Below are positions 3,898-53,689 of a DNA stretch of 64,000 nt, piece by piece; within the stretch, counting starts at the first letter, position 1, and each line of letters starts with the position of its first letter. The notes beneath the pieces were generated by a model, which saw nothing but the letters and a program-made list of their open reading frames with translations, was not told where the DNA came from and searched no databases. The stretch comes from an uncultured Eubacteriales bacterium (GTDB lineage: Bacteria; Bacillota; Clostridia; Oscillospirales; Acutalibacteraceae). The stretch covers positions 4,399 to 68,398 of the forward strand of contig OMXW01000004.1 in the NCBI GenBank assembly GCA_900315085.1, written 5' to 3'. A program made the translations under genes and the position numbers.

Positions 3898-4947
3898 TTG
3901 CAGCCTAATATCAAGTTTTCCTCAAAGCGGCTCATGCTGTCGCTGATGCTCTGCTCATGCTCGGTAATTCTTTTACAGAATCATAACGTCTCGCCAAAGA
4001 ACTCTTTCACCGTAAATCTGCTCTGTATGCTCGGCGGTCTGGCGGTCAGCGCGGTAATGTTTTTGCCGTCGGTAATTTTGAAAAAAACGAGGGATACCGA
4101 TTTTTTGACCGTCTCGGCTCAGAGCACGCCAAAGCTCAAAATCCCGCTTGCGGCGGTTTACGCACTCTACTTTGTGTATGCCGCCGAGTATTTTCTGCTG
4201 CCGTACACCGACCTTTTTTGCAAAAAGTACTACCCCGAGGTCAGTCCGTGCGTAATCGGACTTTGTCTGCTTGGCGCCTGCGTTTACGCGGCGTACAAGG
4301 GCGCAAATATTATTTCTCGGTTCGGACTTTTCCTGTTCGCCTTTGCGCTGCTCACAAATCTGCTGATGTTCGGCGGAAGCATTACCTCGCTCGATTTCGC
4401 AAACGACAGCTTTGCGCTAAAAGCGGATTGGGACAGTGCATTGAGCACGGTAATATATTTTTGCGCGCCGTCGTTTATCGCCGTGATTTACGCCTGCCTT
4501 GCAGGTGAAACAAAAAACTTCACGCTTAAACAGCCGCTTTTCGCCCTGTTTTTTACCGCACTTAAATACGCGCTCGTGCTGTTTTTTGTGTCGTTCGCGG
4601 TAGGAGCGTACGCTCAGCGGCAGGATTACCAGAGTTTTATTCTGTCGCGAGTGGCTCACTTTGACGGCTTCGCAGGAATTGAAAGTCTGTTTGTTGCGCT
4701 TGCCACAATGTCGGTTTTTATGATAATCTCGCTGTTTTTGAGCTGTATCAACAAGAGCGCGCAGCAGGGCAGACTGAAAAACTCAATACTGTTCGCGGCA
4801 ATAATATTTGCCGTCAGCTTTATAGCGGAGTGGAATAATTCTGTAAAAGAAATATTTATTAACGATTATATTTTTATTATTTTTACCGCAGTTGTGGCGG
4901 TTCTTATTCCGCTTGCATATATCTTTACGGGGAGGAAAGCAAAATGA
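3898..4947 (+). CDS. Spore germination receptor subunit B (GerAB/APC-like membrane protein)
   Basis: About 10 TM helices, directly after gerKA, GIESLFVAL motif; TTG start. Confidence 0.75.
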   Translation: MQPNIKFSSKRLMLSLMLCSCSVILLQNHNVSPKNSFTVNLLCMLGGLAVSAVMFLPSVILKKTRDTDFLTVSAQSTPKLKIPLAAVYALYFVYAAEYFLLPYTDLFCKKYYPEVSPCVIGLCLLGACVYAAYKGANIISRFGLFLFAFALLTNLLMFGGSITSLDFANDSFALKADWDSALSTVIYFCAPSFIAVIYACLAGETKNFTLKQPLFALFFTALKYALVLFFVSFAVGAYAQRQDYQSFILSRVAHFDGFAGIESLFVALATMSVFMIISLFLSCINKSAQQGRLKNSILFAAIIFAVSFIAEWNNSVKEIFINDYIFIIFTAVVAVLIPLAYIFTGRKAK

Positions 4948-5537
4948 AGCGAAGCATTGCGGCAATTATTATTCTTGCACTAATGCTTTTTACGGGCTGC
5001 AGCAGCTCGCACCGAATTGAAACCGCCGCTGTAATCGAAAACGTCAGCGTCGCAAGGGTGAGCGGACAGCTTATTTACACCTTTTACCGTCTGTCCTCGG
5101 ACGAAAAGCCGCCAAAGACGGAAATCGCCGCTTCGTCCTTTGAGGAGGCGTGCACGCTCGCGCGCGAAAAATATATTCCTCACCTCACGCTCGCAAAGCT
5201 CAGACTTCTGCTTGTTCACCGCGATTTAAAGGACAGCGTAATGCCAAAGGATATAAGCTATATCTCAACGCAGACCTATTTTTCGCCAGTTGCGTATGTG
5301 GCGCTCTGCGACGACGAAACAATAAAAAAGGTGGGGGAAAGCTCGCATATTTTAAACACGGTTGAAGAACAGCTCAAGCTCTGCCAAAAGCGCAGTCCGC
5401 AGGTCAGGCTCGACTACCTTTCAATCTTCAACAGCCTTCAAAGGGACGACGGAAACGGAGTGAATATTGCTTTTATTAATTCTGATAAAGAATTAAAAGC
5501 GGATATTGAAAAAATATCTGTAAAATATGAGAATTAA
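4944..5537 (+). CDS. Short GerC-like lipoprotein
   Basis: Lipobox LFTGC, third gene of the ger operon, only 197 aa. Confidence 0.65.
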   Translation: MKRSIAAIIILALMLFTGCSSSHRIETAAVIENVSVARVSGQLIYTFYRLSSDEKPPKTEIAASSFEEACTLAREKYIPHLTLAKLRLLLVHRDLKDSVMPKDISYISTQTYFSPVAYVALCDDETIKKVGESSHILNTVEEQLKLCQKRSPQVRLDYLSIFNSLQRDDGNGVNIAFINSDKELKADIEKISVKYEN

Positions 5538-23033: not shown

Positions 23034-23627
23034 ATGGGAAAATTTGATTCATTTTTCGATGACGCTGTTGTTAACGCCAAGGCTGCGGCTTCCGCGGTTT
23101 CAAAAAAGGCAGTAACATTCTATGACGCGTCAAAGCACAAAATTTCAGCCGCTGAAATCAGAGGCGAAATCAACAAGAAGCTCAAGGAGCTCGGCAAGGT
23201 AACCTACAAGTCAGAGGTTCACGGCACCGACCTTTTTGCAGAAAAGGAACAGCTCATTGCCGAAATCAAGGAGCTTATTGAAAATCTCAACATCATCAAC
23301 GGCCACATCGCCGCTATCAAGAGCCAGAGAAAATGTCCGCAGTGCGAGGCAAGAGTTCCCAAGAACTCAATCTACTGCAACATCTGCGGAACAAAGCTCG
23401 AGGACGCTTCCGCGGAGCAGGCTGTAATGGCTTGCGCAAACGCTGAGGAGGCTGCCGAGGCAGCAGTTGAACAGGAAGCTCCCGCAGAGGAAGCTGCCGC
23501 AACAGAGGCTGAGGTAATTGCCGAGACCGTTGAGGAAGCAATTGAGGAAAAGGTTGAACCCGCTGTTGAGGAAGCAGCCGAGGATACGGTTACGGTAGAC
23601 GATTCCTCAGAGGATTTGTTTGTATAA
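23034..23627 (+). CDS. Coiled-coil plus zinc-ribbon protein with acidic Ala/Glu-rich tail
   Basis: CPQC..YCNICG zinc ribbon; low-complexity EEAA C-terminus; SD AAAGG. Confidence 0.8.
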   Translation: MGKFDSFFDDAVVNAKAAASAVSKKAVTFYDASKHKISAAEIRGEINKKLKELGKVTYKSEVHGTDLFAEKEQLIAEIKELIENLNIINGHIAAIKSQRKCPQCEARVPKNSIYCNICGTKLEDASAEQAVMACANAEEAAEAAVEQEAPAEEAAATEAEVIAETVEEAIEEKVEPAVEEAAEDTVTVDDSSEDLFV

Positions 23628-23652: not shown

Positions 23653-23840
23653 GGGACTGTCGCATTAAGCCAAAAATTTCCATGTCATTCCGAGCGCAAT
23701 TGTAGGGGAGGCGCTTGCCGCCTCCCGGCAGGTCAGCGCATAGCTATCGGGTGACCGCAAGGGTCGCCCCTACCGGGATTAATATTATTAATCAACTCAG
23801 GATGACATTTTATGGAATAATTGCTTAATGCTACAGCCCC
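23653..23840. mobile_element. MITE-like element with 18-bp TIRs enclosing nested REP elements
   Basis: gggactgtcgcattaagc (23653-23670) vs gcttaatgctacagcccc (23823-23840), 16/18 inverted match; no ORF inside. Confidence 0.65.
23702..23773. repeat. GTAG-type REP doublet (REPIN, family B)
   Basis: GTAGGGG-hairpin...hairpin-CCCCTAC, 72 bp; 65/72 identical to 42826-42897. Confidence 0.9.
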
Positions 23841-27501: not shown

Positions 27502-27912
27502 ATGGAGCTGACCTTCGCAGTTCAGTCCTCGGCGTTTCTTCATTCAATTCTGCTCGGAATAATTCTCGGCGCAATATACGGCGTTTTCAAATTCGTTAGG
27601 ACGGCGTTTGATTTGTCAAAGCCGCTGACATTCGCCGCCGATGTGCTCTATATGCTGATTTCCGCGGTACTGATTTATCTTTTTATATTGGCGTACCTTT
27701 CGGGCTATGTGCGGCTGTACCTGCTTCCGGGGATAATAATAGGCTTTGCGCTCTACAGACTGACGCTCGGCAGACTGCTGTGCAGATTTTATAACCCGGT
27801 AATAAGCCTGTTCAGAGCCGTTTTCGGTGCGGTTTCAAAAAAATTTAAAATATTTGCGAAAAAAGTATTGAAAAAACTGCGTCACTTGTTGTATAATAGA
27901 CAGGTGAGTTAA
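27502..27912 (+). CDS. yabQ: Spore cortex biosynthesis protein YabQ
   Basis: Q...F..SI.LG...G..Y..F..R pattern, G.VR.Y; follows yabP. Confidence 0.85.
   Translation: MELTFAVQSSAFLHSILLGIILGAIYGVFKFVRTAFDLSKPLTFAADVLYMLISAVLIYLFILAYLSGYVRLYLLPGIIIGFALYRLTLGRLLCRFYNPVISLFRAVFGAVSKKFKIFAKKVLKKLRHLLYNRQVS
27868..27897 (+). promoter_or_regulatory. Sigma-A promoter for tRNA-Thr, overlapping the yabQ 3' end
   Basis: TTGAAA-18 nt-TATAAT, 26 nt upstream of the tRNA. Confidence 0.65.
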
Positions 27913-27923
27913 ACAGTTTAATT

Positions 27924-27999
27924 GCTGATGTGGCGCAGCCGGTAGCGCAACTGATTCGTAATCAGTAGGTCAGGGGTTCAAATCCCCTCATCAGCTCCA
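27924..27999 (+). tRNA. tRNA-Thr (anticodon CGT)
   Basis: 76 nt; acceptor gctgatg/catcagc, anticodon loop ttCGTaa, T-arm agggg-ttcaaat-cccct, encoded CCA. Confidence 0.97.
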
Positions 28000-28389
28000 A
28001 GTAAAAGAGCATCCCAAAAGGGGTGCTCTTTTACTTTACCTCTAAAATGCTGATGAGGGGATTTGAAGGCGACCGTTAAGAAAACGTGCCGGCGGCACGT
28101 TTTTAGGGAGAGCGATGATGGAAGTTATCCCATAGAAAGTGGACGCAACAGGCGAGGAGGAAGTATTGATGAAAGCATCAGCTCCAAGTAAAAGAGCATC
28201 CCAGCGGGGTGCTCTTTTACTTTACCTCTAAAATGCTGATGAGGGGATTTGAAGGTGACGAGAACGACCGCCGCCGGTGGCGGATGAAGGGAGTTCGAGG
28301 AAGAGCCGAAACAGGGAGTTTGAGGAAACAGCTTTAGCTGCGACGATAAACGACCATGTTTCAATCGGAGACCGATAAGAAAACGTGCC
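27977..28389 (+). repeat. tRNA-Thr-linked fold-back/core cassette (two units)
   Basis: Direct repeat 27989-28069 / 28176-28255; inverted tRNA 3' copies at 28049-28067 and 28235-28253; core 28068-28175 shared with the tRNA-Ser locus. Confidence 0.9.
28000..28035 (+). terminator. Terminator after tRNA-Thr (second copy at about 28187-28221)
   Basis: agtaaaagagcatccc-aaaa-ggggtgctcttttact. Confidence 0.8.
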
Positions 28390-29129
28390 TATGCGGTTTT
28401 TTTATAGAAAATTAAAAGGCACAAATAAACGCTTAAAAACAGCGCTAAATCCAAAAATGTAAGTCAAAGGTTAGTCAAAAAAACGCCTCGGAGTTATTAT
28501 TCGGAGACGCTTTTGATATTGTTAATCATATTTATGTGTAATATGTGGTTAATACTTACAAAGAAGGTAGAAAATATAGGAAAATATATTAAAATGATAT
28601 AAGCATTATTGTTAAAACATTCATTTTTTATTAAGTGGTATTATTTTGTAAGAAACGCGGATGAATATCTTTTATTCATTTTTCATTTGTTAAGGTTTAA
28701 AAGTCTGGTAAACAGCCAATAATTAATATTTTGGGTTGATGCAAAATAATATTAATATATATTAATAAAAATGAATTTTTTATAAATATTTGCTTTGCAA
28801 TATTTTGTTACTCATTAAATCTATATTGCTATAATAACAATATTTGACAAAACATGACTTTATTTGAAATGCTCTCTATAAAAAATATCTGCGCTTGAAA
28901 TTGATTGAATTTGAAATTAATGTGCACCAAAAATTTGTAAATTCATGTCCTAAAATGATATTATAAAACATACTTAGTCAAACTCAATCACCGTCAACCA
29001 ACATAATACACAAAAATAATAAATAAATTGTGAAAATATCATTTATTATGAGAATTTACTTTTTTTGTTTTTTTAGGTAAAATATATACACAGAACAAAA
29101 ATTAACCACTAGGAAAGGAGTTTTGTCAT

Positions 29130-35365: not shown

Positions 35366-35759
35366 TGTCATTCCGACCAACGCGGAGGAATCCCCAAAAC
35401 AGGAAACTGACTTCAATTGTAGGGGCTTGCATTGCAAGCCCGCTGCTTGTTGAAAAAATGTTTTATCTGTTTTAATTAATGTCAATTATTGAGATGACGG
35501 TAATCAAGGCTCCTTTTTAAAAGGAGCTGTCAATCACGCAAGGGATTGACTGAGGATTTAACTGCGTTAACATTTCCGTTCTATCAAAGGTTTTTGATGA
35601 AATAAAACATCATCTGCTAAATCCTCCGTCACGCCGCAAGCGGCGCGCCACCTCCTTTATAAAAGGAGGCTTTTTCAACTCATTTTCAAATTTTGTTCTC
35701 TTGATTTACGATTTGACTTTTTCTACAGTATGAGTGCGACCGCAAGGGTTCGTACCTAC
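35366..35759. repeat. Nested REP cluster (families A, B, C) between convergent genes
   Basis: A half 35366-35393; GTAG half 35419-35442; family C doublet 35506-35672; CTAC half 35732-35759. Confidence 0.8.
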
Positions 35760-42792: not shown

Positions 42793-43003
42793 ATGTCATT
42801 CCAAAAAATGGAACTGAGTACAACTGTAGGGGAAGCGCTTGCCGCCTCCCGTCAGACCGGCGCATAGCTACCGGGTGACCGCAAGGGTCACCCCTACACC
42901 ACAAAATGTCATTCCGAGCGCAGTCGAGGAATCCCCCGAATAGTGAACAAACTTCATTATAAAAAGAAAAGATGTCATTCCGACCAACGTGGAGGAATGA
43001 CAT
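42793..43003. repeat. REP cluster (three family A units plus a family B doublet)
   Basis: atgtcattcc at 42793, 42906 and 42972; GTAG...CTAC at 42826-42897. Confidence 0.85.
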
Positions 43004-46242: not shown

Positions 46243-46456
46243 GGGCTGTCGCACAGGAACGACACTGGGGTCGTTCCCTACAATCCGCAAATAAAAAGTC
46301 CTTCCCTTGAGGGAAGGTGGGCAATCCGCTTGCGGATTGGTCGGAAGGGTGACCTTTACGGAACATTTCCTACATTGTTATTCTTCTGTAATATAGCTTC
46401 GCTCATGTCACCCCTCAGTCTTGCGTATGCGCAAGACAGCTCCCCTCAATGGGAGC
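46243..46456. repeat. REP cluster: MITE-end remnant, CTAC half and family C doublet
   Basis: gggctgtcgca 46243-46253; ggaacgac..gtcgttccctac 46256-46281; ccttccc-ttga-gggaagg...gggtgac 46300-46353 and gtcacccctcagtc...gggagc 46407-46456. Confidence 0.75.
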
Positions 46457-46503
46457 ACATTTAATAATCTTGACAATCATTAATATTGAAAACAAAGTTT
46501 TTC

Positions 46504-46753
46504 AACAAAAAAAGCACCTTGTTAGGTGCTTTTTGTTTGGCGGAGAGAAGGTATGTAGGGTAGTAAGGTGAAGTTGTACCCCGCCTGATGGGTTCACTTT
46601 CTATGAGAAACGTAATCATCAGCGCTCTCCCTAAAAACGTGCCGCCGGCACGTTTTCTTAACGGTCGCCTTCGAATCCCCTTCTCCTAAATCCGCAAACA
46701 AAAAAAGCACCCTGTTAGGTGCTTTTTGTTTGGCGGAGAGAAGGGGATTCGAA
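46504..46753 (-). repeat. tRNA-Ser-linked fold-back/core cassette
   Basis: 48-bp direct repeat 46504-46551 / 46697-46744 (1 mismatch); palindrome 46670-46753; core 46552-46669 homologous to 28068-28175. Confidence 0.9.
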
Positions 46754-46795
46754 CCCCTGGTACGGTGATTACCGTACACATGATTTCCAATCTCC
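46731..46795 (-). pseudogene. tRNA-Ser(GGA) lacking the D-arm region (65 nt)
   Basis: Minus strand GGAGA-ttGGAaa-tcatg, long variable arm, agggg-ttcgaat-cccct, tctctcc-G-CCA; D-arm and 5' anticodon stem absent. Confidence 0.85.
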
Positions 46796-53549: not shown

Positions 53550-53622
53550 ATGTCATTCCGACCGGGCAGGAAAACACAGGTTTCTGCATTGTGAGATCCT
53601 TCGACTACGCTCAGAATGACAT
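53550..53622. repeat. Family A REP doublet inside the dxr-rseP operon
   Basis: atgtcattccgacc...gatccttcgactacgctcagaatgacat. Confidence 0.8.
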
Positions 53623-53689
53623 CTTCATTTAGCAAAATAGGGTATATGGAATAAATCATCTTGCGGAATAAATTTTTGGAGATGTATAA

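Follow-up and report, generated by a model that had tools for sequence, protein, structure and literature searches.

Two tRNA genes in the window, which is the whole stretch of 64,000 nucleotides analysed here, were each found to be followed by the same kind of non-coding unit. The unit behind tRNA-Thr consists of the following parts:

27924-27999, plus strand: tRNA-Thr(CGT), the host gene, called by ARAGORN/Rfam; T-loop to CCA at 27977-27999
28000-28035, plus strand: terminator-like hairpin of unit 1
28036-28048, plus strand: linker of unit 1, 13 nt, unpaired in the fold-back, opposite the acceptor end and CCA
28049-28067, plus strand: antisense arm of unit 1, 19 nt, complementing tRNA-Thr positions 54-72
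28068-28114, plus strand: constant core of 47 nt equal to the Ser copy; tandem-GA stem P2 around hairpin P3 (28081-28103)
28115-28175, plus strand: variable 3' core and tail, shortened at the junction in the Thr copy
28176-28186, plus strand: direct repeat of the tRNA-Thr 3' end, positions 66-76 in the Thr copy
28187-28253, plus strand: left part of unit 2, with the repeated hairpin (28187-28221), a linker and a second arm (28235-28253)
28254-28368, plus strand: module B, an insert of about 115 nt with a CC-NGN-GG hairpin
28369-28389, plus strand: remnant of a second core, the left half of P3

The unit behind tRNA-Ser consists of these parts:

46731-46795, minus strand: tRNA-Ser(GGA) as assembled, with about 31 nt of the 5' half absent; T-loop to CCA at 46753-46731
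46697-46730, minus strand: terminator-like hairpin
46687-46696, minus strand: linker
46670-46686, minus strand: antisense arm, matching tRNA-Ser positions 54-69
46552-46669, minus strand: core and tail, with P3 at 46634-46656; the tail abuts tRNA position 63
46538-46551, minus strand: direct repeat of 14 bp, tRNA-Ser positions 63-76
46504-46537, minus strand: second copy of the terminator-like hairpin

The preliminary description of this DNA had placed one cassette behind both tRNA genes, each copy with an inverted arm specific to its own tRNA, and this was borne out. The Thr arm (28049-28067) is complementary to 27977-27995 at 19 of 19 positions, and the Ser arm (46670-46686) pairs with tRNA-Ser across 16 nt. 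The two cores are identical over exactly the 47 nt that had been reported, and 88% identical over 92 nt. Repeat detection returned the described periods of 187 and 193 bp: the Thr direct repeats are 187 nt apart from start to start (186 past a loop that is 1 nt shorter), and the Ser repeat covers 48 nt with a period of 193. The Ser copy has the canonical form of the family, whereas the Thr copy is atypical, with a repeat that begins at tRNA position 66 and a tail about 7 nt below the family norm. The Thr repeat leads into the second arm and from there into a second, interrupted core with the extra module (28254-28389). Folding the Thr region 27970-28215 as DNA gave z = -9.9, and none of 200 shuffles was equally stable.

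Module B inserts into the unit cores of relatives at the P2/P3 region, in either orientation. Besides the window copy at 28254-28368 it was seen at loci L032, L373, L004, L005, L041, L296, L313, L327 and L027, and it also builds separate tRNA-linked units (L037).

The tRNA-Ser(GGA) gene was called by neither ARAGORN nor Rfam because about 31 nt of its 5' half are absent from this assembly. At the gap (46791-46795, minus strand) all four other runs carry tRNA-like loose letters, 31-32 nt in two of them and 8 and 14 nt in the others. The gap is probably an assembly collapse or a strain-specific loss.

The joints of the units (terminator-arm-core and core-repeat) recurred in Logan contigs of other runs, those of the Thr copy in 3 DNA or unlabelled runs from 3 studies and those of the Ser copy in 4 runs from 4 studies. 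Since they were seen in runs from other studies, they are not an artefact of this assembly alone. Among the Logan contigs of other runs, no contig spanned either whole unit with both flanks, and no pair of empty and filled alleles and no proven circle was seen at the two loci. Unit contigs had about twice the depth of the flanks in runs X6 and X10 and equal depth in X2, which at most hints at copy-number variation. The Thr and Ser cores (28056-28120, 46617-46681) form inverted repeats of 65 nt at 97% identity; 18.5 kb separate them, and inversion of the intervening segment would be possible. In run X3 one contig joins the Ser flank to the right half of the Thr unit, which may be a graph effect. 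This contig and joints that go back 193 were considered as signs of inversion or circles and rejected, because short-read graph effects can produce both.

None of the 54 main ORFs of the window matched an integrase, transposase or recombinase family at E<=1e-8, in line with the earlier statement that the window encodes no recombinase. Two of the 54, of 197 aa each (4944-5537 and 23034-23627), had no Pfam family at this threshold. Housekeeping and sporulation genes flank the units, and they are those of a clostridial gut bacterium. An Rfam search of the window returned only tRNA at the gathering threshold, with 17 sub-threshold chance matches in 27900-28500. A hammerhead ribozyme, considered for the CTGATGA...GAAA spacing in the Ser core, was rejected by eye because the motif is unconserved in core alignment A1. 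The window also contains other families of dispersed palindromic repeats, namely GTAG-type REP pairs and a TGTCATT type (2354-2386, 23692-23773, 35366-35415, 42816-42998, 46300-46500, 53579-53625).

Architecture and extent of the family

A covariance model of the core was built from 30 cores and run on 41 genomes. It matched 10 times in the source genome (G000), which together with truncated or arm-only copies holds about a dozen copies. All 24 other genomes of the genus were matched, 1 to 28 times each, and none of the 16 genomes of other families. From the regions of most of 150 listed matches, with 54 further matches outside the listing, 101 genus units were recovered, 66 of them first units; as the units are related, counts over them are not independent. 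A T-loop-to-CCA end lies at most 130 nt upstream in 66 of the 101 listed genus units; the remaining copies, judged by eye, lie inside arrays or at contig edges or are displaced. The targets are the ends of tRNA and tmRNA genes, with 22 tRNA-end types represented, and tandem arrays of 2-3 near-identical units were observed in a one-contig genome. The order of parts in a unit of about 190 bp is tRNA positions 63-76, terminator-like hairpin, linker, antisense arm, covarying core, tail, and positions 63-76 again.

The arm follows its own tRNA. In the 66 listed first units it matches the own tRNA at 98-100% over positions 54-62, where invariant positions are partly forced by the unit finder and the informative ones are 57 (0.98 for the own tRNA vs 0.50 for other tRNAs), 59 (1.00 vs 0.42) and 62 (1.00 vs 0.79). 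The match drops from 0.94 to 0.68 over positions 63-68 and is near background by 72. In 59 of these units no other tRNA fits the arm better than its own, with a tie in 10 of them. At positions that vary between genomes among similar tRNA ends, the arm has the letter of its own tRNA in 114 of 120 comparisons, some of which pair different isoacceptors. The changed base 62 of Gly-TCC (G010) and Ser-GCT (G024) is mirrored in their arms, and the arms of tmRNA copies match their own T-loops (L115; G010:C93). Some linkers at the same tRNA are common to several species (Arg-CCG, Gly-TCC and Gln), so the pattern is in part inherited, and the arms show inheritance as well as updating. Mismatches between arm and tRNA show no strand bias (G-T 11, A-C 8), and the wobble test was uninformative. 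A perfect fold-back that includes the CCA complement was found at L058, and fold-backs without a terminator in G020.

A repeat of the 3' end is present in 56 of the 66 listed first units. It begins at position 63, giving 14 bp, in 43 of these 56, and positions 61-62 are CC in nearly all tRNAs. Since the repeat usually starts at 63 without the CC of the tRNA, the joint looks enzymatic. Among the same 56, the base before the repeat is A in 44 and the distance from arm to position 63 is 113-118 nt in 44; the tail ends directly before position 63 in a conserved AAC(A/G)TA-like motif. Repeat identity most often stops at CCA (mode position 76). The repetition of the tRNA end together with the terminator, as described earlier, holds at Thr and Ser but not across the family: the second copy does not share the terminator in 38 of the 56 listed units, shares it in 15 and shares it partly in 3. 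Because the terminator is usually absent from the second copy, it travels with the unit. No terminal inverted repeats were detected in the units (4.02 vs 3.94+/-0.11 nt).

The end of the core had been described as an unrelated segment of 20-30 nt; it is neither a guide nor a spacer unique to its copy. Tails are near-identical within arrays, their similarity groups by genome (0.48 vs 0.40), and they share the conserved end. Tail searches gave only chance matches in 50,697 phage records and no meaningful ones elsewhere in the source genome.

Related copies were found outside the genus, in forms that differ from the genus units (Faecalibacterium, Coriobacteriia and more). A pattern scan of GTDB contigs returned at least 120 loci; among the 130 matches listed, 106 had a fully paired variable stem, and of those 106, a called tRNA lay within 200 nt in 65, an arm scoring at least 10 was present in 52 and a repeat in 46, while an arm was present in 0 of 8 broken-stem matches among those listed. 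Carriers among the matches listed include Faecalibacterium, Collinsella, Slackia and Adlercreutzia (Coriobacteriia included) and an alphaproteobacterium. In these other lineages the repeat starts at 56-60 (17-21 bp) in 38 of the 49 units with a repeat, among 65 units listed. In metagenome contigs a T-loop-to-CCA end lies upstream of 65 of 103 distinct cores, and 60 of these 65 have an arm match of at least 11 of 13 positions; the repeat starts at 62 in 27 of 50 metagenome copies and at 63 in 13, counted over redundant loci. The start at 63 is thus no universal rule. When 301 genomes were drawn evenly from the phylum, convincing copies (paired stems, by eye) turned up in about 4, and hence the family is patchy. 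The bare pattern occurred in 35 of the 301, mostly by chance, and was rejected as a measure because the reversed control matched in many genomes too. Plasmid and phage collections yielded one partial plasmid match and one chance phage match.

Several copies depart from the regular form. In the source genome, tRNA-Ser(CGA) and tRNA-Gly(TCC) are followed by remnants that consist of an arm alone, and other units are displaced and have no tRNA (contigs C46, C82, C60, C151 and C94); the arm on C94 fits the T-loop of this genome's own Arg-CCG and its linker is common to other species. At L103 (minus strand, about 2700-2900 from the end) a tRNA-Ser array runs into a Gln-type repeat, terminator and arm, which suggests either that cores from separate tRNA loci have recombined or that the assembly is chimeric.

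The core, its grouping and the search for an enzyme

The core consists of a tandem-GA stem (P2) around an A-tract hairpin (P3) with a CC-NGN-GG cap. In P2/P3, 99.7% of cells are paired and 7 of 13 pairs show double changes; slid controls reached 40-57%, and shuffled controls were also far below. C-GNA-G triloops with a stem of at least 4 occurred 23 times on the sense strand and 6 times on the antisense strand of 91 units (shuffles 1.3+/-1.2), and GNRA tetraloops 11 and 3 times (shuffles 2.4+/-1.5). C-GNA-G triloops have special stability in DNA rather than in RNA. As the triloops enriched on the tRNA-sense strand are of this DNA-stable kind, the result leans towards a single-stranded DNA form.

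Cores group by genome and not by tRNA. On a core tree of 64 rows, with few columns and only 8 well-supported branches, genome labels required 35 changes vs 48.3 when shuffled (0 of 200 as low), and tRNA labels 48 vs 50.5 (21 of 200 as low). Core identity was 0.74 within a genome and 0.67 at the same tRNA type across genomes, with a baseline of 0.66.

The search for copies linked to a protein gene, which the preliminary description had proposed, turned up no mobiliser tied to the unit among the ORFs around units. Clustering 758 ORFs (L031-L167) revealed nothing beyond syntenic host genes and genes resembling prophage or island recombinases, named by eye, and 1146 ORFs from 313 loci gave the same two kinds, again by eye. 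Pairs of cores 1.2-1.7 kb apart enclose passenger genes and not mobilisers (L050, L432, L449, L489). At L432, L449 and L489 the block of tRNA-Leu and unit stands in tandem around the passenger gene, a HAD-like hydrolase by eye, and at L050 a gene of 211 aa lies between two unit copies.

Candidate enzymes in trans were sought in the 41 genomes, most of which are incomplete assemblies, so that absence means not found in those searched. Y1_Tnp was found in 19, Cas1 in 14, RVT_1 in 15 and IS110 in 6 of the 41, and none covered all high-copy genomes. Y1_Tnp was not found in G002 (one contig), G010 and G024; Cas1 was not found in the source genome G000, G002, G010, G016 and G024; RVT_1 gave no match in high-copy G010 and G016 and occurs in only 9 of the 24 other genus genomes; IS110 was not found in G002, G016 and G024. 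Thirty Y1 loci held only one tRNA-linked unit, beside an ordinary IS200-type gene, and the two RAYT-like genes of the source genome (C141, C38) adjoin GTAG-type REPs. At L345 (G008:C32) an IS110-family element begins at the very foot of P3 in a unit, as though it had targeted that unit.

Tyrosine integrases were searched for in the source genome only, and are present there. Units adjoin integrase-like genes, named by eye, at prophage ends (13 viral loci), and no integrase was tied to the unit at bacterial loci. Four tRNA-Leu-related ends of the source genome (C41, C121, C78, C130) each lead into one and the same island-end sequence with short direct repeats. On C41 and C121 this sequence comes after the repeat of the unit, which suggests that islands land there in the unit repeat instead of the tRNA; C121 carries an integrase. 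On C121, tRNA-Leu(CAA) passes straight into the arm without its 3' end.

The idea of a tRNA-targeting element with a flank templated from its target stands in part. The units are gene-less repeats targeted to tRNA genes, the arm follows the target and there is no enzyme in cis; the terminator, counted earlier with the target, travels with the unit.

Relation to tRNA-linked repeats and mobile elements

The first description of E. coli tRNA-linked repeats dates from 1978. In the available portion of PMC8144298 (2021), these TLRs lie behind a tRNA or rRNA gene, 1-5 per locus, end in an 18-19 bp copy of the upstream gene's 3' end and are said to be without known function; rtT is also treated in the accessible part of 10.1101/2024.07.17.603846. 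The E. coli TLR/rtT sequences (the 178-bp repeats of tyrT-tyrV, rttR/rtT) are gene-less and tRNA-linked and repeat the 3' end, as the genus units do, so the earlier statement that no named family has this layout was too strong. We read 13 sites of E. coli K-12. Inverted arms to the own tRNA were present at tyrV (10 nt), the tyrT-tyrV spacer (8), serX (8) and argV (8), and weak or absent at 9 of the 13 (proK, argQ, argZ and six lys). The tandem-GA motif CGAGCG...GCGAGAG occurs at tyrV, tyrT-V and proK, and sense-strand C-GNA-G triloops were present at 13 of 13 sites, antisense ones at 3 of 13. The E. coli repeat begins at 58-59 (18-19 bp), whereas that of the genus units begins at 63 (14 bp), and the E. 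coli arms are short and split by a hairpin. The E. coli sequences lack the P3 hairpin of the genus units. Model R1 gave no significant match on the E. coli TLR loci (best E=5), and the Rfam rtT model had no match in the window. With no cross-match of models between genus units and rtT, and only short motifs in common, common descent is not shown. The unit is built like an E. coli TLR and sits where the positional definition of TLRs places them, with differences in repeat length, arm quality and core. The literature search returned no account of target-matched inverted arms, and the available portions of PMC3733652, PMC8632094, PMC6429828 and PMC5737381 contain no description of them; older papers (Williams 2002, Bosl and Kersten 1991, Rudd 1999, Egan and Landy 1978) may already mention the E. 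coli arms.

REP/BIME-RAYT (TnpA_REP) and IS200/IS605 elements resemble the unit as non-autonomous hairpins of single-stranded DNA type with a pairing sequence 5' of the foot and tandem amplification. The accessible part of PMC3333891 describes, for IS200/IS605 ends and REPs, a guide 5' of the hairpin foot and nick-primed amplification of units. The strand-biased triloops and the arm-hairpin layout of the unit would fit a single-stranded DNA hairpin with a 5' pairing tag. However, the pairing sequence of REP/IS200 is a constant tetranucleotide, whereas that of the unit is 10-20 nt and target-specific, and the unit differs further in targeting tRNA/tmRNA ends, in its 14-bp repeat and in having no Y1 gene that tracks it. 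No RAYT gene flanked by the unit's hairpin was found. In the source genome there are 13 CC-NGN-GG hairpins with at least 4 further pairs, and all 9 with at least 6 are unit cores behind an arm. Because these 9 all sit behind arms, REP-like spread away from tRNA genes was not encountered.

Other systems differ more. Islands and prophages that integrate at tRNA/tmRNA genes duplicate the tRNA 3' end up to CCA (available portion of PMC9897764); such integrative islands (attL/attR) carry an integrase and cargo, whereas the unit has neither, places one core at many tRNAs and has an inverted arm. The casposase of A. boonei reads its target from the tRNA T-loop region and makes a 15-bp target duplication that overlaps the tRNA end by 5 bp (accessible part of PMC5137440). 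Unlike casposons and MITEs, the unit lacks terminal inverted repeats, and Cas1 was not found in the high-copy genomes. Unlike CRISPR-like arrays, it has no unique spacers that match mobile elements, and its source genome yielded no Cas1. The recombinase of IS110 bridge-RNA elements does not track the unit across the 41 genomes searched.

Proposed origin, alternatives and meaning

We tentatively favour, at a little under an even chance, the reading that the gene-less hairpin unit of about 190 bp is a non-autonomous mobile element, inserted between T-arm positions 62 and 63 by a trans-acting enzyme that nicks and joins single-stranded DNA. The active form would be the single DNA strand of tRNA sense. 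The arm, immediately 5' of the P2/P3 hairpin, would pair with T-loop and T-stem and help to set the cut, a placement that also holds for the guides at IS200/IS605 ends and in REPs. The AAC(A/G)TA-like motif at the element's 3' end would be joined to nucleotide 63, and duplication of positions 63-76 would produce the 14-bp repeat. Fold-back synthesis with the terminator hairpin as primer may write the target-specific portion of the arm, either during insertion or afterwards, and this portion would in time decay where it lies opposite the acceptor end. Arrays may grow and shrink through recombination or rolling copying between repeats. We infer all enzymatic steps of this insertion mechanism. 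Counting against the reading, the searches in cis and in trans turned up no enzyme, the contigs of other runs showed neither an empty and filled allele pair nor a proven circle, the joint lies elsewhere in other lineages, and some linkers are inherited.

Unlikely, in our judgement, is a domesticated RNA resembling rtT, with old and mostly static units whose cores are homogenised by gene conversion and whose arms are kept matched by fold-back correction. Gene conversion alone could group the cores by genome, which weakens that grouping as evidence of mobility, and the presence of the family in 24 of 24 genus genomes and the inheritance of some linkers speak for this alternative, as does the enrichment of GNRA tetraloops alongside the triloops. 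A minimum free energy fold of the Thr read-through RNA is predicted to pair the 5' strand of the tRNA with the downstream repeat, and there are reports that rtT and three rRNA-linked TLRs exist as RNAs in E. coli (available portions of PMC8144298 and 10.1101/2024.07.17.603846). Static units are, however, hard to reconcile with 1-28 matches per genome, unstable arrays and deleted terminators, and cores, tails, linkers and terminators are not more alike at the same tRNA type across genomes. The core is thinly covered by assembled contigs of one RNA run (X15), though contigs cannot show expression, and this alternative does not account for the origin of the joint at 63 at 22 tRNA-end types.

The mobile-element reading can be widened to a class of gene-less elements, spread over several phyla, that would renew their antisense guide on every target and use it, together with a trans-acting recombinase, for insertion at one set base in the T-arm of any tRNA or tmRNA gene. 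This would be a natural form of integration guided by nucleic acid, with the E. coli TLRs as worn remnants. We consider this wider form unlikely.

Units at prophage ends beside integrase-like genes, and the island-end sequence behind unit repeats on C41 and C121, would accord with a minimal island or att relic. Here an attP-like circle (63-76, terminator and core) would have been recombined into tRNA ends by tyrosine or serine integrases borrowed from prophages or islands, and may serve as a spare landing site. The identity block that stops at CCA and the element-borne terminator agree with it too. We nevertheless hold it to be quite unlikely, since attP needs prior identity with each target while one core serves many tRNAs per genome, the inverted arm is unexplained, and bacterial loci gave no integrase tied to the unit (tyrosine integrases were sought in the source genome only).

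Target-primed reverse transcription yields a precise 3' joint and an untidy 5' end. The unit has a precise 3' joint and an untidy 5' linker, and all its targets are 3' ends of stable RNAs, as if a borrowed reverse transcriptase copied unit RNA from a nick at 62|63 and a T-loop-like cDNA end then jumped to the target and wrote the arm. A retro-element of this kind is very unlikely given the distribution of RVT_1, the predominance of DNA-type triloops and cores that are full length and not 5'-truncated. Ranked lower still, as hardly probable, is enzyme-free template switching resembling tandem-inversion duplication, with a snap-back at the terminator, copying to the T-loop, a microhomology switch to another core and a return to the tRNA; perfect and near-perfect fold-backs exist, and the repeat of other lineages begins inside the conserved T-loop, where microhomology exists, but the right joint in the genus is without the CC that microhomology would keep (43 of 56 listed units) and the terminator is mostly unduplicated. 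A CRISPR-like array, with the constant part as repeat or scaffold and the tail of 20-30 nt as an acquired spacer guiding against foreign nucleic acid, is almost certainly wrong: tails vary between loci and arrays occur, but the tails are near-identical in arrays, end in a conserved motif, group by genome and match phage records only by chance, and Cas1 was not found in the source genome.

The Thr and Ser loci are a real observation, and they are built as a known but unexplained kind of repeat. The genus units add to this kind a fixed junction, a per-position profile of the arm, grouping of cores by genome and strand-biased triloops of DNA type. In this lively branch, which reaches 28 model matches per genome, features hidden in the worn E. 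coli copies become visible, namely an antisense arm matched to its target, a fixed junction and hairpins of DNA type. This makes the old TLR question directly testable: which enzyme acts, whether on DNA or RNA, and whether the arm guides. The units supply homology for rearrangements between tRNA loci. If the arm does not guide, they still multiply att-like tRNA ends and break assemblies at tRNA genes. If it does, they would be a compact integration system that can be re-targeted and is directed at the safe landing sites most common in bacteria.
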